DNA of 64,000 nt from Patescibacteria group bacterium. GTDB taxonomy: Bacteria; Patescibacteriota; Patescibacteriia; Buchananbacterales; SURF-54. Location: the NCBI GenBank assembly GCA_018818885.1, contig JAHIRB010000007.1, positions 18,357 through 82,356 on the forward strand, given 5' to 3'. Made by a program: the position numbers and the translations under genes. Positions 93-40,736 of this stretch are shown here, piece by piece. The first letter of the stretch is position 1. Every line of letters begins with the position of its first letter. Under the pieces are notes generated by a model that had not been told where the DNA came from, did not search any database, and saw only the letters and a list, made by a program, of their open reading frames with translations.

Positions 93-662
93 ATGAGTGA
101 GCGCGTAAGAAGACTAGGTACATTAAAATGGGAGGAAACACCCGAAATAACGATATGTACATATTCGTATGCATATACCATGGATGGAGGCGCTACAACC
201 ATAGTGCCAATGGTTCTAACTCTCGATACTGATGATATTTGGCACAACACTTTCGAAAAACTACCAAAACTTATAAAGAAGCTTCAAGGTAGTTCCCCGT
301 CCACATTTTTTCTGGAACAATGTATCTCCGACCTCGAAGTAGAATGGAAATTGACTTTTATTTTCGAAGGTCCTCCTAGAAATCTGGCTGGTTGCCTCAA
401 AGCTGCAGCCAAATTCTTGGAGAAGGAGTTCAAAAATATTCTCCATGAGGAAACGACAGTACATCTCTTATCTAAAAGTGATTCACTTCTACCTCTAAGT
501 AATCACAAGGAAACCACAGTTTGTGGAATAACATTCAATTATCGTGATGGCACGCTTGTTACAAAAAAAATTGGTGCAGATATCGACCACCCAGATGTAT
601 GTCCTGACTGCAGGGCAAAATTCAATGGGGAGTTCTGGGTAGCCGTCAAGATTGACGAATAG
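93..662 (+). CDS. hypothetical protein (GC-rich ORF, CPDC motif near C-terminus)
   Basis: 189-aa ORF with consensus SD (aaaggaggag) 7 nt upstream of ATG; GC content clearly above window average; followed by rho-independent terminator; no recognisable family. Confidence 0.5.
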   Translation: MSERVRRLGTLKWEETPEITICTYSYAYTMDGGATTIVPMVLTLDTDDIWHNTFEKLPKLIKKLQGSSPSTFFLEQCISDLEVEWKLTFIFEGPPRNLAGCLKAAAKFLEKEFKNILHEETTVHLLSKSDSLLPLSNHKETTVCGITFNYRDGTLVTKKIGADIDHPDVCPDCRAKFNGEFWVAVKIDE

Positions 663-4541: not shown

Positions 4542-4979
4542 TTATTTCAAAGTTACTTGTCCGCCTGCTTCTTCTAACTTCTTTTTCATGTTTTCTGCTT
4601 CTTCTTTCTTTACCCCTTCTTTGATAACTGCTGGAGCAGAATCAGCTAAATCTTTAGCTTCTTTTAAACCAAGTTCTGTTACTTCTCTTACTGCTTTAAT
4701 AACACCAATTTTGTTATCACCTGTAGAAGTAAGTTCAACAGTAAATTCTGTCTTTTCTTCTGCAGCAGGTGCATCAGCACTTGCAACTGCCATAGCTACT
4801 GGAGCAGCAGCAGAAACACCAAACTTATCTTCTAAAATGCCAACTAGTTCTGCTAAATCAACTACTGACATCTTTTCGATTTCAGATACAATTGATTTAA
4901 ATTTTTCTGGAACTACTACGTCCTTTTCTTGACCTGAGTTGGTTGAAGGTTTTTCTTCCTTAGTTTTTTCGTCTGTCAT
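4542..4979 (-). CDS. rplL: 50S ribosomal protein L7/L12
   Basis: [10 protein letters not shown]...Ala-rich hinge...[19 protein letters not shown]...EAGGQVTLK; ~18-aa N-terminal extension relative to typical L12. Confidence 0.9.
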
Positions 4980-12362: not shown

Positions 12363-12914
12363 TCAATCCGGTGGGGTTTTGGTAAAATCTATCACTGAAT
12401 ACTCTTCAAACACAGATAAGATCCATTCTTTTCCGTATTTCTTTAAATAATAATTATAACTTGAAAATTTATAACTTTCTAGCTGATCAAGGCTTCTAAC
12501 ATAATCATGTTTTATAGGATTGCAATGAATATAATTGAAACGTGTCCAGAAGTCTTTTTCTGATTCTAGAATAGTATCATGATATTGATGCCATACTTTT
12601 CTACCTCGTTTATCGTCTAGACTATTCACAAGAAAAGAACTCTTTCCATTAATCAACTTAGTAATTTTTTTCAAATTATCTTTATTCTTAATTCTACAAT
12701 TTAAATGATAATGATTTCTTAAAACAACCCATGCTAACAAATTTTCATTACATTCATCAAATGCATTCTTAATACATTCTGATAATATTTCTCTTTTTTT
12801 GTCACTATGAAAATAATTAAATTCCTTATAGGTTCTTGCTGTAATAAAATATTGAGTATTATCTAAATATATATGAGGTAAACGGTGTATATTTCGTTTT
12901 TTTGGATAATGCAT
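12363..12914 (-). CDS. IS200-like / REP-associated tyrosine transposase (HuH Y1 transposase, RAYT)
   Basis: 183 aa; HuH motif NHYHL, conserved Tyr region, flanked on both sides by REP-like repeats. Confidence 0.75.
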   Translation of the reverse strand: MHYPKKRNIHRLPHIYLDNTQYFITARTYKEFNYFHSDKKREILSECIKNAFDECNENLLAWVVLRNHYHLNCRIKNKDNLKKITKLINGKSSFLVNSLDDKRGRKVWHQYHDTILESEKDFWTRFNYIHCNPIKHDYVRSLDQLESYKFSSYNYYLKKYGKEWILSVFEEYSVIDFTKTPPD

Positions 12915-14126: not shown

Positions 14127-15659
14127 CTACTCATACTCCACAGTAGCTGGTGGTTTTTGTGTTATGTCGTATAAAACGCGGTTAACTTCTTTTACCTCGT
14201 TAACAATTTTACTTGAAATCTTAATTAAAGTTTCATATTTAAATTTATACCAATCAGCTGTCATAAAATCTTCTGTTGTCACAGCGCGTAAACTTACAAT
14301 ATATTTATAGGTTCTGGCATCACCCATTACACCAACTGATTTAGCTGGTAGTAACGCTGCAAACGCTTGGGTTATGTTGCTATAATCTCCAGATTTTTTT
14401 AGTTCTTTCATATAAATTTCATCTACTGCTTGCAGGATTTTAATTTTTTGAGATGTTATATTACCTAAAATTCTTACAGCTAAACCTGGACCTGGAAAAG
14501 GATGACGATATATGACGTCTTTATCAAGTCCTAAATCTAGACCTAATTCTCGAACTTCGTCTTTATATAAATCTTGTAATGGTTCGATGATTTTAAAATG
14601 TAGTTTTTCTGGCAGAGTTAAATTATGATGGCTTTTAATTTTATCAGCCTTATTAGAACTGGCAGCTGATTCAATTCTATCAGGATAAATTGTTCCTTGT
14701 GCAAAATATTTAATATGCTCTTTTTTAGAAATTTTCTTACCTTCAGTTTCAAATACCTTAATAAAAGTATGTCCAATTATTTTTCTTTTCTTTTCTGGCT
14801 CAGTTACTCCTTTTAGTCTATTCAAAAATAAATTTCTAGCATTTACTACTTTAAAATTTTTAATATTTAATTTTTTGTAAATCTTTCTTATTTCTACAGT
14901 TTCATTTTTTCTCATTAAACCATGATCTACAAATACACAATACAAATTATCTCCTACTGCCTTATGAATTAATGCAGCAACTACGGTTGAATCTACTCCG
15001 CCAGAAGAACCAAGCAAAATTTTATTATCTCCAACTTGTATTTTAATTTGTTCAATTAAATCTCTGGATAGGCTTTTTACTTTCCAAGTCTTTTTTGCTT
15101 TGCACACACCAAAGACAAAATTTGCAAGTATATCCTTGCCGCGTTTAGTATGAACTACTTCTGGATGAAACTGCACACTATACATTTTCTTATTTGTATT
15201 TTCCATCGCAGCAATTGGACAGCTTGGACTTGTAGCAGTTCTAATAAATCCTTTTGGTAATTTTGATACAATGTCATAGTTTGAAAACCAAGTTTGCTGT
15301 TTTCCCTTAATTCCTTGAAATATTTTTCCTTGCTTTGTTACTTTTATAAAATACCTGCCAAACCTACCAACTTTTCCTGGTTCAATTTTAATATTAAAAA
15401 AATCAGCAATAAGCTGATGTCCATAACATATTCCCAAAATTGGAATACTCATTTTAAATATTTCTTTTTTAACTTGAGGTGAACCTTTACCGTAAACGGA
15501 TGCAGGGCTACCAGAAAAAATAATGCCATCTGGTTTTAGTTTCTTGAGTTGCTTGCTAGATACATTGTGTGGCAAAATTTCAGCATAAACACCGAGTTCT
15601 CTAACTCGGCGGGCAATTAGGTGAAGATATTGTGATCCAAAATTTAATATAACTATCAT
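14127..15659 (-). CDS. guaA: GMP synthase (glutamine-hydrolysing)
   Basis: 510 aa; class I GATase N-domain plus ATP-PPase SGGVDS and C-terminal dimerisation domain. Confidence 0.9.
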   Translation of the reverse strand: MIVILNFGSQYLHLIARRVRELGVYAEILPHNVSSKQLKKLKPDGIIFSGSPASVYGKGSPQVKKEIFKMSIPILGICYGHQLIADFFNIKIEPGKVGRFGRYFIKVTKQGKIFQGIKGKQQTWFSNYDIVSKLPKGFIRTATSPSCPIAAMENTNKKMYSVQFHPEVVHTKRGKDILANFVFGVCKAKKTWKVKSLSRDLIEQIKIQVGDNKILLGSSGGVDSTVVAALIHKAVGDNLYCVFVDHGLMRKNETVEIRKIYKKLNIKNFKVVNARNLFLNRLKGVTEPEKKRKIIGHTFIKVFETEGKKISKKEHIKYFAQGTIYPDRIESAASSNKADKIKSHHNLTLPEKLHFKIIEPLQDLYKDEVRELGLDLGLDKDVIYRHPFPGPGLAVRILGNITSQKIKILQAVDEIYMKELKKSGDYSNITQAFAALLPAKSVGVMGDARTYKYIVSLRAVTTEDFMTADWYKFKYETLIKISSKIVNEVKEVNRVLYDITQKPPATVEYE

Positions 15660-15770
15660 AATAAAATTATATGGATTTTTGCAATATATTACTATCCATG
15701 AAATTACTCGATCGCTTCAAATGAACACAATGTGCCCCTTTGAAGCTCACTCGTAATTATATAAAAATTT

Positions 15771-15816
15771 TGACAAAAAGAAAAGGGGGCTTCTGGAATT
15801 TAATCCATATCGCCCC
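15771..15816 (-). terminator. rho-independent terminator (minus strand)
   Basis: minus-strand ggggcg...gccccc stem with structured loop followed by ttttcttttt. Confidence 0.6.
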
Positions 15817-16091
15817 AATTTCACCCAATTATTTCCAGCGGCTTGGGCGGCCGGGATGGACTTTTTGCGTCTTGCGCATAGTCCTGCCCTGCATTCGGGC
15901 TAATAACGCTAATTATAGCGCCTGGTAGTCTCAAGTTACATCAAATCATAATTAGGTTTCTGGCTTGAGGTACAACATTCCCTCCTTTCAGCATTTTTGG
16001 TTGATCACGGTCGAACAATTAGCTTACCCGCTGCACAAGTAATATGGTGTTGCTGCAGGCAAAGTGCAAACACCTTATTACGCTTCCTTCC
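15817..16091 (-). other. GC-rich untranslated region (candidate structured RNA or long 3-prime UTR), class unknown
   Basis: approximately 275 nt markedly GC-richer than surroundings, no convincing ORF, bounded downstream by terminator. Confidence 0.3.
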
Positions 16092-16640
16092 TTAATTGAT
16101 CTTCATTTTGCTGCTCACAACAGCAGTAAGCTTGCACCGTGCCGATTCCCAGATTTCTTCCCAGCAGTCAAATACTGCTGTCCAACAATGCGGTCGTTTT
16201 CCTGACCAATCAAATCCGGTCACTCGCCAACGAAGGTATGTCTGACAGAATTCTGCTTTCCAGAATTGTCCACCCGGAATGACAATACCTACCTCTGAGT
16301 AGAAAATCATCTTACCTTTATTGGTGTAGGGTTTTGGAATTATTAAGCCGGTCATGAATTCAATCTCGGCTTTTTTCAAGCGTTCCCCCAACACACGTAT
16401 GTCCTCGCAGACAACACATACCATTTTGCGCATTACTTGAGGAGTACTTCCCTTACGAGAAGAAGGCGGACAGAAGTATACATCCAACTGTCCATTTCCG
16501 TTTTGACAGGCTCTTTGAAATCTAACCATGAGCCTTTCAGGTATGAGGAATACTGGCAGTGTTCTTTTCTTTGCCATTTGTATAAACTTGGCTGGTGTTT
16601 TTTTATTAACTAGATTCATTATGAGCCTGCCCCCTTTCAA
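16092..16640 (-). CDS. hypothetical protein of atypical (GC-, Trp-, Cys-rich) composition
   Basis: 182-aa ORF in compositionally anomalous island; no recognised motif. Confidence 0.35.
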   Translation of the reverse strand: MKGGRLIMNLVNKKTPAKFIQMAKKRTLPVFLIPERLMVRFQRACQNGNGQLDVYFCPPSSRKGSTPQVMRKMVCVVCEDIRVLGERLKKAEIEFMTGLIIPKPYTNKGKMIFYSEVGIVIPGGQFWKAEFCQTYLRWRVTGFDWSGKRPHCWTAVFDCWEEIWESARCKLTAVVSSKMKIN

Positions 16641-16728
16641 AACAACATTGGTTTAGATCCTTAAATAAACTACAGGTTTACTTAAAGATCATTGTCAAAA
16701 TACTAACCTTAAATCATAGCATAAAAAC

Positions 16729-16760
16729 AAAAAAATGTCAAATGGTATGACATCTTTTTT
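16729..16760. terminator. bidirectional terminator hairpin (atgtca...tgacat flanked by A-run and T-run)
   Basis: direct inspection. Confidence 0.55.
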
Positions 16761-16782
16761 GCTTATTTTATTTAAAAATTAT

Positions 16783-17316
16783 CTATTCCAGTACATATTC
16801 CCACCCAGGCTGCCATTGCCACGGATCTGTTAAAACCTTTTCAAGAGAATACCCTTTTATCCAGTGCTCCAAACCATATTGAGTTACTCTATGCCCTATT
16901 ATCATAATCTTCTTGTCTTGATAGTCTTTATTTAAGTCATCAAAAAAACTTTTCATTCTTTCCATGCACTCTTGATAACTTTCCCCGATAGGGAACGGTT
17001 GATTAATATATTTTGATCTTACTTTGTTTACTTCTTCATTGGGGTGATGTTCTAAATCCCCGTAATCACATTCACGTAATCTTTTATCTTTTATAATTTT
17101 GAAATCTCTATTCTTAAAAGCTATTTCTGCAGTATTGTAAGATCTTTTTAGATTAGAACAAAAGATAGCGTCAAAGTGTTCATTCTTGTAACGCTCTCCT
17201 AATTCTTTAGCTTGTTGTTGTCCTAGTTCAGATAGCTCAACATCATCTAACCCAGAAGCTAATCCTTTCTCATTATCGAGACTTGTGGCATGTGATTCAA
17301 AAATTATCGTAACCAT
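16783..17316 (-). CDS. histidine phosphatase superfamily protein (phosphoglycerate-mutase-like)
   Basis: ESHATS...GHR arrangement resembling RHG...H catalytic pair but with R/G substitutions. Confidence 0.55.
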   Translation of the reverse strand: MVTIIFESHATSLDNEKGLASGLDDVELSELGQQQAKELGERYKNEHFDAIFCSNLKRSYNTAEIAFKNRDFKIIKDKRLRECDYGDLEHHPNEEVNKVRSKYINQPFPIGESYQECMERMKSFFDDLNKDYQDKKIMIIGHRVTQYGLEHWIKGYSLEKVLTDPWQWQPGWEYVLE

Positions 17317-17324
17317 ATTATTAT

Positions 17325-17456
17325 ATTGTCATCTCGACCGTTATTTATTTATTTTATGCGAGTGGAGAGATCTCACCCCAAACTTCTTGAAAGGTGTGAG
17401 ATTCTCCGCCAGAGGCGGATCTGCCTATGGCATGACTCGACAAGCTCGGAATGACT
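17325..17456. repeat. composite REP-related hairpin cluster
   Basis: ggagagatctcacc/ggtgtgagattctcc hairpin; gccagaggcggatctgcctatggc palindrome shared with REP and with CDS tails at 47071 and 55461; gctcggaatgac terminal motif. Confidence 0.55.
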
Positions 17457-17460
17457 AAAA

Positions 17461-23360: not shown

Positions 23361-24041
23361 ATGTCTAAATCACCAAACTGGGGTCAAGGCACTCAACTCG
23401 AGAAACTTGGATTTCACCACGCTGAAATTCAAGAAATCATTGACAATCATCGAGCAGTTCATGAGTTACTAGCCAGTATTCGTGAAAAGAAAAGACGCTC
23501 AACTTTTCAGCGTATTATGTATGCCACAGGAATTATTGACCCAACAGGTTTTTTGAACAAAGCACTCACTCACAAAGAACTTCTGATCGGATTTCCTTCG
23601 GTTAATGGGAGAATTATTGACCTTCTGTTGAAAATTGAAATAAATGTCTCCCTGCACATCCTCAATCTTAATATTGTGCTACCAAACAAAGAGTCTGACG
23701 ACGAAGTACAATCCGCAATAAAAAAGATGAACTGGACATCGATAAAATCAAAAAAACTTGGTTCTTTAGAGGCGATGGAAGAAAATATCGATAGCACTCA
23801 CAAAGAATGCCGGCGTACAAATATTTGGGCAGCAATATCTATGGCAATATTGCATCCTGAATCTTTCAGGCAAGGTGAAATTTTGGTGTTTAGCCAGTTT
23901 CGATATAAATCTGCTTCACCACTACACAACCTTGTTGTTCCGATCTTAAGACTTAAACGCGGACAAATCTATATCGATGCTGCTGACTATTGCGACCCAA
24001 TAAGGGAAGGAAACTTTCACTCACTCAGATTGTATGGCTAA
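23361..24041 (+). CDS. hypothetical protein (226 aa) on repeat-bounded cassette
   Basis: ORF with SD aaaggag; 130-nt structured leader; own terminator. Confidence 0.5.
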   Translation: MSKSPNWGQGTQLEKLGFHHAEIQEIIDNHRAVHELLASIREKKRRSTFQRIMYATGIIDPTGFLNKALTHKELLIGFPSVNGRIIDLLLKIEINVSLHILNLNIVLPNKESDDEVQSAIKKMNWTSIKSKKLGSLEAMEENIDSTHKECRRTNIWAAISMAILHPESFRQGEILVFSQFRYKSASPLHNLVVPILRLKRGQIYIDAADYCDPIREGNFHSLRLYG

Positions 24042-39254: not shown

Positions 39255-40736
39255 ATGTACAAGTCCCAAAAAAATAAAAACAATAATTGGAAATTGGAAA
39301 TTGGAAATTGGAAATTTCAACAGAAGGGTGCTATACTTATAATGACAATGACCTTTACAGTTGTTTTTTTAATTATTGCTGGAGGTCTTATCGCCCTAAT
39401 AAATCAACAACAAAGATTAAATAGAATTAGAAAAGCTAAAGCACAAGCACTACATCTTGCAGAAGCTGGTGTAAATTATTACCGCTGGCATCTTGCGCAT
39501 GATCCCGATGATTATACCGATGGTACCGCTACTACCTGCAACGAAGAAACGAATCCATGTATTCATGATTATTTGCAAGGTGATACTATGGGTCAATTCT
39601 CATTAACCATTACGCCACCTTCCACTGGTTCAACAGTCGTAACAATTAAATCCACTGGCTGGGTAAATGATTTCGAAGATTATAAAAGAAGAGTTGTCGC
39701 AAAATACGGACTACCATCTTGGGCACGCTATGCTGTAGTTGCTAATGCAGATATGCGTTTTGGTGAAGGTACTATTGTCCATGGTCCATTACATTCTAAT
39801 GGTGGAGTTCGATTTGATGGTATTGCTTATAACGAAATTACTTCTGCCCAGGAAAGCTATAACGATCCAGATCATAGTGGTGGTAATGAGTTCGGAGTTC
39901 ATACACACGTAGACCCTACGGATCCTCTACCGCCCACAACCGTACCCGCTAGATTAGATGTATTTGCAGGAGGAAGAAGTTTTCCCACCCCTTCAATTGA
40001 TTTTAACGCCATTACGGTCGATCTAGCTATGCTAGAAGATGCAGCAGATGATGACGGTCTACATATCAAAAAATCTAATCAAGAAGGCTGGCACATTATA
40101 CTATCTCCAAATGGCACATTAGATTATAGAAAAGTTGATTCATTTGAATACTGTGGTAGTACTCCAACCGGAGGAGATTTAGATTATCAAGGTAATTGGA
40201 CAACCGATGAACCATTTCCCAACAATGGCATAATCTTTGTTTCAGATCATGTCTGGATTGATGGGAGTATAGATGGACACAGACTAACTATTGTAGCTGC
40301 AGAAGATCCACTAGCTTCTGGTGATGCTGATATTTGGATAAATACAAATTTAACATATACAAATTACAACGGAACTGATGCTATTGGCCTCATAGCGCAA
40401 AATGACATTAATATTGGTTTATATAGTGAAGATATTTTAAGAATTGATGGTGCACTTATTGCACAAAATGGACGAGTCGGTCGTTATCATTACTCTTCTT
40501 CGTGCGATCCAATTTATTACGACAGAGATACAATTACAGTTTTTGGTGCGATTGCGACAAATCAAAGATATGGATTTAAGTGGGTTTATGGAGACGGAAC
40601 CAAGGCATCAGGATATACAACCAGAAACCTAGATTTTGACGGTAATTTAACCTATGCTCCCCCACCTCTATTTCCCTCTACTGACACTTACGATTTTATT
40701 TCTTGGGAAGAGGTCTTAATAAACGAAACTTATTAA
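39255..40736 (+). CDS. PilX-like minor pilin / pilus-associated protein
   Basis: QKGAILIMTMTFTVVFLIIAGGL...AEAGVNYY resembles PilX_N domain; 5-prime coding end contains heptamer tract. Confidence 0.5.
   Translation: MYKSQKNKNNNWKLEIGNWKFQQKGAILIMTMTFTVVFLIIAGGLIALINQQQRLNRIRKAKAQALHLAEAGVNYYRWHLAHDPDDYTDGTATTCNEETNPCIHDYLQGDTMGQFSLTITPPSTGSTVVTIKSTGWVNDFEDYKRRVVAKYGLPSWARYAVVANADMRFGEGTIVHGPLHSNGGVRFDGIAYNEITSAQESYNDPDHSGGNEFGVHTHVDPTDPLPPTTVPARLDVFAGGRSFPTPSIDFNAITVDLAMLEDAADDDGLHIKKSNQEGWHIILSPNGTLDYRKVDSFEYCGSTPTGGDLDYQGNWTTDEPFPNNGIIFVSDHVWIDGSIDGHRLTIVAAEDPLASGDADIWINTNLTYTNYNGTDAIGLIAQNDINIGLYSEDILRIDGALIAQNGRVGRYHYSSSCDPIYYDRDTITVFGAIATNQRYGFKWVYGDGTKASGYTTRNLDFDGNLTYAPPPLFPSTDTYDFISWEEVLINETY
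39284..39313. repeat. heptamer microsatellite (aaattgg x4) in 5-prime coding end of PilX-like gene
   Basis: direct inspection; unit length not multiple of 3. Confidence 0.75.

Follow-up and report, generated by a model that had tools for sequence, protein, structure and literature searches.

Structured 3′ untranslated regions (3′ UTRs), and small RNAs derived from them that end at the intrinsic terminator of the messenger RNA (mRNA), are familiar from enterobacteria and Firmicutes. A second described element of relevance is STAB-SD (GAAAGGAGG), which lies upstream of the Bacillus gene cryIIIA and stabilises the mRNA, acting near its 5′ end against 5′-to-3′ decay. Here we describe a locus that recalls both, located in a stretch of 64,000 nucleotides (hereafter the window) from a Patescibacteria group bacterium of the candidate phyla radiation (CPR) (Buchananbacterales; contig JAHIRB010000007.1, positions 18,357 to 82,356 of the forward strand). 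A GC-rich island is situated there between a phosphatase gene and guaA, and we propose that it is one autonomous minus-strand transcription unit in which a strong sigma-70-type promoter with an extended −10 element, a leader of ~85 nt and a ribosome-binding site (RBS) would precede a 175-aa gene, and in which the transcript would continue through ~317 nt of GC-rich, base-paired untranslated RNA up to a Rho-independent terminator that adjoins a separate guaA promoter. This architecture, together with a long residence of the gene at the locus, is on balance probable. The elements of the proposed unit are as follows.

16713–16741, minus strand: predicted promoter of the open reading frame (ORF), TTGACA, 17-nt spacer, TATGAT, with TG before the −10 hexamer; matches 11/12 of the consensus
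16620–16637, minus strand: predicted ribosome-binding region AAAGGGGGCAGGCTCATA, abutting the ATG at 16619 and aligning with GAAAGGGGGAAGATTCATG of the related contig L011
16092–16619, minus strand: predicted protein-coding gene, 175 aa plus stop codon, member of a three-member orphan family
15775–16091, minus strand: non-coding, GC-rich structured 3′ region (3′ UTR), 317 nt after the stop codon, with no ORF above 37 codons
16081–16039, minus strand: 12-bp hairpin, of high probability in the partition function
15981–15989, minus strand: perfect Shine-Dalgarno (SD) box GAAAGGAGG, from sequence and base-pair probabilities
15823–15957, minus strand: predicted multi-hairpin domain with a 10-bp closing helix (15957–15948 / 15832–15823; pair probabilities 0.89–1.00)
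15775–15816, minus strand: predicted intrinsic terminator, GGGGC (15816–15812) pairing with GCCCC (15790–15786), an inner UGGA/UCCA helix and the T-run CUUUUCUUUUU (15785–15775)
15756–15761, minus strand: TATAAT box, read as the guaA −10 element, directly past the terminator; outside the unit, marking its boundary

As in structured 3′ UTRs, the RNA of the window would lie between a stop codon and the terminator of the same message with no separate promoter detected, although at 317 nt this tail is much longer and more branched than is typical. The box at 15981–15989 is the same nonamer as STAB-SD, a perfect complement of the 3′ end of 16S rRNA that lies far from any real gene start, but it is located in the 3′ UTR, before a start codon and a mini-ORF. 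The layout is also similar to that of smpB–ssrA, where a structured RNA of ~320 nt comes after a gene for a protein of ~160–180 aa; however, there is no SmpB match in Pfam (PF01668 is not matched, and at E ≤ 10 only a chance PucR fragment appears), no transfer-messenger RNA (tmRNA) by ARAGORN or Rfam, no tRNA-like end and no tag ORF. With the genes for orphan hypothetical proteins of the CPR the window ORF shares a small, unassigned and fast-evolving product found in few genomes, but it keeps its position, its promoter and, in one homologue, its ribosome-binding region, and it carries an unusually long GC-rich tail. GC-rich intergenic regions (IGRs) in AT-rich genomes are known to be enriched for structured non-coding RNAs (ncRNAs) (PMC11109978, PMC6429828, PMC8632094), and the window stretch resembles the candidates described in them in being long, GC-rich and over-stable, in an AT-rich genome, without an Rfam match and next to a metabolic gene. 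Those candidates were accepted on covariation across many examples, whereas the window tail has no demonstrable homologue and is not matched by the one conserved RNA of the locus, which is found in two related contigs and described below. A literature search yielded only general papers on discovery in GC-rich IGRs, and nothing on a CPR RNA upstream of guaA. The gene is one of a familiar kind, although no known family is matched: hypothetical, lineage-specific and followed by a structured 3′ UTR.

The comparisons below draw on four related contigs (L009–L012) fetched from GuaA homologues at 63–76% identity. Three other assemblies, all of the same genome, also carry the locus but provide no variation, as they match the window at 100% identity in the stretches that they share with it, and GuaA scans of genome and metagenome contigs found only distant organisms at 43–51% identity. 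One further GuaA homologue, P0010, was set aside as a relative in view of its unrelated, archaeal-type gene context.

The ORF extends from 16092 to 16640 on the minus strand and would encode 182 aa if the TTG at 16640 were the start. Because the ribosome-binding region aligns there with that of the L011 homologue, the ATG at 16619 is the likely start codon, giving 175 aa; the block GAAAGGGGGnAGnnTCAT just before this start is common to the window and L011. Upstream of the L010 homologue (1243–1271 of that contig) there are identical promoter hexamers with the same spacing and the same TG, and upstream of the L011 homologue (4888–4916) there is a near variant, TTGACA-17-TATTCT, also with TG; the promoter regions of all three align with one another. 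When the island is shuffled with its dinucleotide content kept, 13 of 3000 shuffles reach 182 or more codons without a stop (p ~0.004), and tblastn matches the window only in the frame of the ORF. GC contents at the three codon positions (GC1/2/3) are of the coding type in both homologues (0.48/0.35/0.53 and 0.49/0.35/0.50). We conclude from the shuffles, the homologues, the frame-specific match, the GC periodicity of the homologues, the promoter and SD region, and the improvement of the structure model described below, that the predicted ORF is a real gene. Two further properties bear on this conclusion: cysteine and tryptophan are enriched ~4–6 fold in the window ORF, and at the RNA level the window ORF region is structurally unexceptional (z −1.2) while those of L010 and L011 fold better than shuffles (z ~−3.5).

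The −35 box of the predicted promoter is overlapped by a terminator-like hairpin of the phosphatase gene (AUGUCA...UGACAU followed by a T-run; z −4.2 for the minus-strand window 16651–16800). This layout, a terminator abutting a promoter, has a second example downstream of the orphan gene and two more in L009.

The window protein (W175) is related to P0125 and P0126, the homologues encoded on contigs L010 and L011. It shares 25% identity over 123 aa with the 180-aa protein of L011 (BLASTP, E = 2e-7, 39.7 bits), a score reached by none of 500 shuffles, the best of which gave 23.9 bits. The L011 protein in turn matches the 189-aa protein of L010 at 28.1 bits, again reached by 0 of 500 shuffles; the direct comparison of the window and L010 proteins is not significant. 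Pairwise similarity together with the common locus and promoter place W175, P0125 and P0126 in one family, with three members in all among ~15 billion proteins. A word-indexed search of 5.8 billion clusters returned only the protein itself, an exhaustive phmmer search of 1.84 billion representatives returned only the protein itself and P0002, and a profile of the three members retrieved just those three. P0002 is spurious as a relative, being an 18-aa motif repeated 12 times. The window ORF has no sequence match in Pfam, NCBIfam, PHROGs (0 families), PADLOC or the PDB beyond chance-level fragments, the anti-phage defence profiles of PADLOC gave 0 families for all three members, and IMG/VR viral contigs hold no relative of the protein. 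The preliminary description of this DNA, which was made from the sequence alone, had noted a Trp/Cys-rich 182-aa ORF without a recognisable motif, and this is borne out by the residue enrichment and by the empty profile and sequence libraries; a match to a conserved CPR core protein, which would have spoken against its account, did not emerge from sequence, profile or fold searches. The product of the ORF is on record as a JGI protein, and the NCBI entry for a 161-aa variant, MBU1164049.1, reads 'hypothetical protein KKA15_00630 [Patescibacteria group bacterium]'. The family is tiny, fast-evolving and lineage-restricted.

With AlphaFold2 the single sequence gives a mean pLDDT of 44 and the three-sequence alignment one of 68.7 (pTM 0.55); the latter model combines an N-terminal half of alternating beta and alpha elements with a C-terminal half rich in beta structure, and has a terminal helix. 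Foldseek comparison of the pLDDT 68.7 model to the PDB and to BFVD (viral structures) found nothing at E ≤ 0.001; the best match has E = 0.012, and there is a faint ferredoxin-like, PII-like and RRM likeness at a TM-score of ~0.25. The alignment of the three members has just ten invariant columns, and since no Asp, Glu or His is among them, the protein probably has a binding or structural, non-enzymatic role. No hydrophobic stretch is visible by eye at the N-terminus, and the product would be cytoplasmic.

In composition the island stands out from its surroundings, which include the following two genes.

14127–15659, minus strand: guaA (Pfam GATase and GMP_synt_C)
16783–17316, minus strand: phosphatase gene (Pfam His_Phos_1)

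A scan of the whole 64 kb in 851-nt sliding windows places the maximum GC content, 0.442, at 15781–16631, against a mean of 0.330 (sd 0.029), an excess of ~3.8 sd. In a finer profile of 100-nt steps, GC rises from 0.27–0.30 at 15600–15750 to 0.54 at 15800–15899, remains at 0.38–0.48 up to ~16550 and falls to 0.21–0.30 by 16650–16800, which sets the boundaries at an upturn near 15800 and a drop near 16600. The higher GC relative to guaA and the phosphatase gene that had been described at the outset is thus real, GC is not uniform, and the coordinates originally given are correct to within 1–2 bases. Codon usage sets the ORF apart as well, as it fits that of the host poorly (0.05 bits/codon versus 0.28, sd 0.11; GC3 0.42 versus 0.24). 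Other relatively GC-rich ORFs of the window (93–662, 23361–24041 and 39255–40736) likewise lack a Pfam match, and raised GC in this genome tends to go with unannotated, probably lineage-specific genes.

In both L009 and L010 the genes run in the order His_Phos, unknown ORF(s), gap, guaA, fpg, DUF212, BacA; in L011 the ORF, guaA, fpg, DUF212 and BacA are kept, and there is no His_Phos gene in the stretch read. The position of the ORF is occupied by unannotated ORFs of 189 aa in L010 and 180 aa in L011, the two homologues. In the same slot L009 has other ORFs, including two membrane ORFs, and L010 has an additional 71-aa gene. GuaA identity among the contigs is 68–79% (68–72% between the window and the ORF-bearing L010 and L011), compared to 25% for the ORF. 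Since L009 and L010 are the closest pair by GuaA and Fpg (79–82%) and yet their RNAs differ and the ORF is present only in L010, the slot is evolutionarily plastic.

Downstream of the gene, the 317 nt from 16091 to 15775 contain no minus-strand ORF above 37 codons and fold with a minimum free energy of −101 to −103 kcal/mol (z −2.9 to −3.0 versus dinucleotide shuffles), whereas a coding control, the first 520 nt of guaA, gives z +0.3. In 150-nt sliding windows the signal peaks between 16000 and 15700. The closing helix of the multi-hairpin domain encloses hairpins at 15922–15905, 15900–15886, 15884–15858 and 15854–15835; the domain is a single-sequence prediction, and covariation support was not obtained for the window sequence. 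Upstream of it, the GAGG of the SD box (15989–15981) can pair with a CCUC at 15970–15967, 11 nt downstream, and a TTG 5 nt past the box starts a 7-codon mini-ORF. The predicted terminator hairpin (15816–15786; −16.3 kcal/mol, z −2.65) has the GC-rich hairpin and U-run expected of an intrinsic terminator. It is absent from the list produced by a simple terminator scan, probably because its outer stem encloses more than 8 nt. A promoter scan of the window found no promoter-like site between the ORF stop codon and the structured domain. The preliminary description had read 15817–16091 as a region with many short GC helices and no convincing ORF, ending in a minus-strand terminator with a GGGGC stem and T-run, and both parts of this stand, with many high-probability hairpins found and both stem and T-run in place. 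The comparison to Rfam that it had called for was also negative for housekeeping RNAs: at E ≤ 10, Rfam 15 gives only chance-level matches in 15400–17000, and these are outside the GC-rich part, for which no model of RNase P, tmRNA, SRP, 6S, riboswitches or OLE/GOLLD/ROOL/HEARO/raiA reaches the gathering threshold. ARAGORN finds 0 tRNA or tmRNA genes in the window and in L009–L012.

The unit would be strongly transcribed and would yield a small cytoplasmic protein. One tentative role for the tail and terminator, possible although we would not favour it strongly, is to stabilise or protect the 3′ end of the transcript and to insulate guaA from read-through. Insulation is suggested because the −10-type block just past the terminator can be read as the promoter of guaA, as which the TATAAT box may function. 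The SD box within the tail may either be masked by local pairing or load ribosomes onto the mini-ORF.

Two observations concern the start of guaA itself. At 15702–15758 on the minus strand, between the putative guaA −10 box and the guaA start, there is a very stable imperfect hairpin (−21.6 kcal/mol, z −4.9) with which the guaA mRNA would begin; no counterpart was noticed when L009 and L010 were read. A Shine-Dalgarno sequence is not visible before guaA, and a −10-like box (TATAAT, TAAATT or TAAACT) is found 6–10 nt before its ATG (window 15660–15680; L009 5450–5470; L011 5985–6003; L012 5980–6003), which suggests that the guaA mRNA may be leaderless or near-leaderless in this clade.

A GC-rich stretch is present directly upstream of guaA in all four relatives, with GC of 0.44–0.58, mostly above the mean of the locus, and folding z-scores of −4.2 (L009), −2.5 (L010), −4.9 (L011) and −2.6 (L012). 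A hairpin and T-run close this stretch in L009, L010 and L011, and a −10-type box comes next. The block TTTTCTTTTTGTC...TATAAT/TATACT past the terminators is found in the window, twice in L009 and in L010, where the −10-type box is TG-n-TATAAT, and in looser form in L011; the match of this block between the window and L009 has z 5.2. An AAGGAGG box, with a start codon 5–8 nt on and an ORF of 2–7 codons, is shared by the window, L009, L010 and L011, although in L009 the box falls within the end of an upstream ORF, which weakens the idea of a mini-ORF there.

Two of these stretches, L009:5008–5262 and L011:5655–5900, contain a homologous structured RNA of ~190 nt with a terminator, which is not in Rfam (for L009–L012 there is nothing at E ≤ 0.1, and for the L009 and L011 stretches only chance-level matches at E ≤ 10). 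The two share the blocks GGCAAAGAG-hairpin-CACCU, CUGAAAAAGG and CGAGCGAGUSGCGWCGCSAUGA, and in both a CUCC element immediately preceding the terminator pairs with the SD box. All 39 pairs of their RNAalifold consensus form in each of the two sequences (100%), and 15 are changed on both sides; alignments slid out of register give 0–3 such pairs but shuffled ones reach 16, so that the compensatory count alone does not discriminate. The consensus energy is −35.5, whereas shuffling one partner gives −7.4 on average and −14.4 at the lowest. A small conserved peptide was considered and rejected, as the 38-aa and 23-aa 'MAK...' ORFs do not share a frame across the conserved 22-nt block, and one match to an RNA-motif pattern in viral contigs was attributed to chance. 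In L009 this RNA is present without the orphan ORF.

The window tail does not join these two. A covariance model of the L009/L011 RNA upstream of guaA (R1; 210 positions, with the motifs GGCAAAGAG, CACCU, CUGAAAAAGG and CGAGCGAGUSGCG) scores its training sequences at 208–211 bits but finds no match in the window tail or L010, where with filters off the best scores are 5.1 for 15700–16150 of the window, on the SD box only, and 7.3 for L010. Local alignment with shuffles detects only the SD box and a 15-nt block between the window tail and its relatives. This block, TGGAAAnAAUnGGGU, is common to the window and L010, which have a similar order of hairpins by eye (alignment z 1.6), and their consensus energy (MAFFT and RNAalifold) of −12.5 is inside the shuffled controls. 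The tail may be a diverged homologue of the conserved RNA or an unrelated sequence under similar pressure.

Several of these results weigh against the transcription unit as we propose it. GC1/2/3 in the window ORF is flat (0.457/0.411/0.417, versus 0.44/0.30/0.24 in host genes) and, as noted, its host codon fit is poor. The family has only three members, and the link between the window and L010 is transitive through L011 alone. L009, the closest genome by GuaA, is without the ORF, which makes the slot a variable one. The structure of the tail comes from single-sequence folding with a modest z of ~−3, contributed in part by the terminator, and by alignment, alifold and R1 the window 3′ region has no significant conservation of sequence or structure with any relative. 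The promoter, transcript ends and terminator are predictions at the level of consensus sequences, and the role of stabiliser and insulator is one that we infer.

These points leave room for other explanations, of which the most drastic is that the ORF is spurious and that the entire 0.9-kb GC-rich stretch is one large non-coding RNA. The flat GC over codon positions, the excess of Cys and Trp that is typical of random frames, the poor single-sequence AlphaFold2 model and the over-stable ORF regions of L010 and L011 would all fit such an RNA, but it is at odds with the improbably long open frame, the in-frame protein homology, the SD region and start codon aligned with L011, the coding-type periodicity of the homologues, the better model obtained with an alignment and the ordinary folding of the window ORF region, and we consider it scarcely credible. 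That the island between guaA and the phosphatase gene is acquired DNA or a mobile-element remnant is quite unlikely, although this would account for the highest GC of the window, for atypical codon use (GC 0.44 versus 0.33; GC3 0.42 versus 0.24), for a protein without homologues outside three contigs and for slot contents that differ between L009 and L010; a Y1 transposase gene also lies ~3 kb away (12363–12914), and a perfect 10-nt inverted repeat (15767–15776 / 16692–16701) brackets the unit. Inverted repeats of 10 nt are, however, common in such an AT-rich stretch, a second perfect one being among the 40 inverted-repeat pairs of the same scan, and we rejected this pair as the terminal inverted repeats of a mobile cassette. 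The ORF list, ARAGORN and a repeat scan show no mobility gene (integrase or transposase), tRNA or target-site duplication inside the island, and there is neither a copy in viral contigs nor a second copy or paralogue in the 64 kb. The locus is not empty in the relatives, nor is the ORF more similar between them than its flanks are: homologous ORFs with the same promoter occupy the same position at GuaA identities of 68–72%, and they are far more diverged than the flanking genes. A recent transfer is unlikely because it would give the reverse pattern of divergence, while an ancient one, predating the split, should have been ameliorated in composition. Thus, of the origins offered by the preliminary description, recent horizontal acquisition of a compositionally foreign gene conflicts with the same-slot ORFs or GC-rich structured stretches in contigs 68–79% identical in GuaA and with a conserved promoter of native type, and a mobile element remnant is without support, the flanks showing no repeats beyond chance, whereas a gene with a long structured 3′ UTR agrees with the homologues, the shared promoter, the aligned ribosome-binding region, the non-coding over-stable tail and the terminator. 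The gene has probably been long resident at the locus, since before these lineages diverged, and it is more likely that its high GC would be maintained by function, through a base-paired RNA and a Cys/Trp/Arg/Pro-rich protein, than that it reflects recent foreign origin.

The remaining explanations concern the RNA. That guaA has a cis-regulatory leader here, for instance a riboswitch or attenuator with the terminator as its expression platform, is suggested by the position directly upstream on the same strand in all relatives with the terminator 45–165 nt before the start codon, by the long-range helix of SD box and CUCC element in L009 and L011, which closes a domain before the terminator in the manner of a riboswitch P1, and by the recurrence of CGGTG in the 5′ arm of the terminator in L009, L010 and L011. 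We nevertheless find it very unlikely, as a −10-type box (TATAAT or TATACT, partly with TG) recurs between terminator and guaA in every contig, and the lack of a promoter-like site between the ORF stop codon and the structured domain would make the RNA the tail of the upstream transcript. Further, there is no match to a riboswitch model, be it purine, PRPP, ppGpp, xanthine or any other, the motifs common to L009 and L011 are missing from the window RNA, and no conserved ligand-binding core with covariation was found between the window RNA and its relatives. Alternatively, the 3′ region could be a functional ncRNA by itself, derived from the 3′ UTR or independent, acting in trans or in a ribonucleoprotein (RNP) with the protein, so that the ORF is its partner or a mere neighbour. 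Over-stable GC-rich non-coding DNA in the same place in four related contigs speaks for this, as do the enrichment of structured ncRNAs reported for GC-rich IGRs and the L009/L011 RNA, whose conservation is clear (−35.5 versus a control minimum of −14.4, with 100% of cells paired), is not in a common reading frame and in L009 occurs without the ORF. On the other side, the R1 model finds neither the window nor L010, the window/L010 consensus fold is within shuffled controls, the promoter scan finds no start between stop codon and structured domain in the window, and no Rfam family matches; we regard a functional ncRNA of this kind as rather unlikely. The unclassified ncRNA raised in the preliminary description is possible for the 3′ part; conservation of the window tail in sequence or structure was not found. 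Unlikely, too, is the wider idea that the slot upstream of guaA may house an undescribed class of structured RNA, of ~200–320 nt, GC-rich, bounded 5′ by a perfect SD box and 3′ by a terminator, of which the window tail would be a diverged member and the orphan protein the partner in a small RNP or in a dual-function mRNA/RNA. The class, or the small RNP, rests mainly on the L009/L011 RNA, and its extension to the window fails with the present data. A resident gene with an RNA tail is more likely than a mobile remnant, a guaA riboswitch or a foreign island of recent date.

Some other features of these contigs lie beside the unit. Between the conserved RNA and guaA of L009 (5295–5400) there is a second short structured element with a hairpin and T-run (GACGGUGAGGC...GCCCUCACCGUC UUUUUCUUUUU) and a duplicated promoter block, which could be a small RNA gene. 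In L012 (5455–6000; the same in L013 and L014, Candidatus Buchananbacteria) the gap upstream of guaA is 546 nt long, with 0.55 GC in a 0.40-GC genome (z −2.6); it is not alignable to the others, and one assembly calls in it a 109-aa ORF on the opposite strand with no Pfam match. The Y1 transposase gene at 12363–12914 (minus strand; IS200-like, Pfam Y1_Tnp, E = 2.7e-6) is located between fpg and DUF212, as is one in L009 (8603–9142), and is not found in L010, L011 or L012; it may be of a domesticated or REP-associated type. Beyond the four close relatives, the best GuaA matches are 57–60% identical and bear Candidatus Woesearchaeota (archaeal) names wherever a source is given, and the genes around P0010 are purine genes of archaeal type; this may point to a transfer of guaA between domains in which the present clade took part. 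A GC-rich intergenic element at 17335–17460, between the phosphatase and Maf genes, has long inverted repeats (GGAGAGAUCUCAC.../...GUGAGAUUCUCC) and folds at −38.7 kcal/mol on the minus strand (z −3.6) and −40.2 on the plus strand (z −2.9), with no Rfam match. The sole Rfam family above threshold in the window is the ribosomal protein L10 leader (RF00557; 5557–5677, minus strand, 64.9 bits).

The compositional anomaly in this CPR genome is not evidence of recent transfer, but probably marks an old, lineage-restricted gene with a long base-paired RNA tail, and it carries a caution for composition-based calling of islands in very AT-rich genomes, in which small proteins of odd composition stand out just as structured RNA does. 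The gene adds a real member to the pool of CPR 'hypothetical proteins'. The locus upstream of guaA is variable, and at least one conserved, unclassified structured RNA is present there, that of L009 and L011. If it is true that protein and RNA cooperate, they would constitute a new small RNP in a group with few characterised RNAs.

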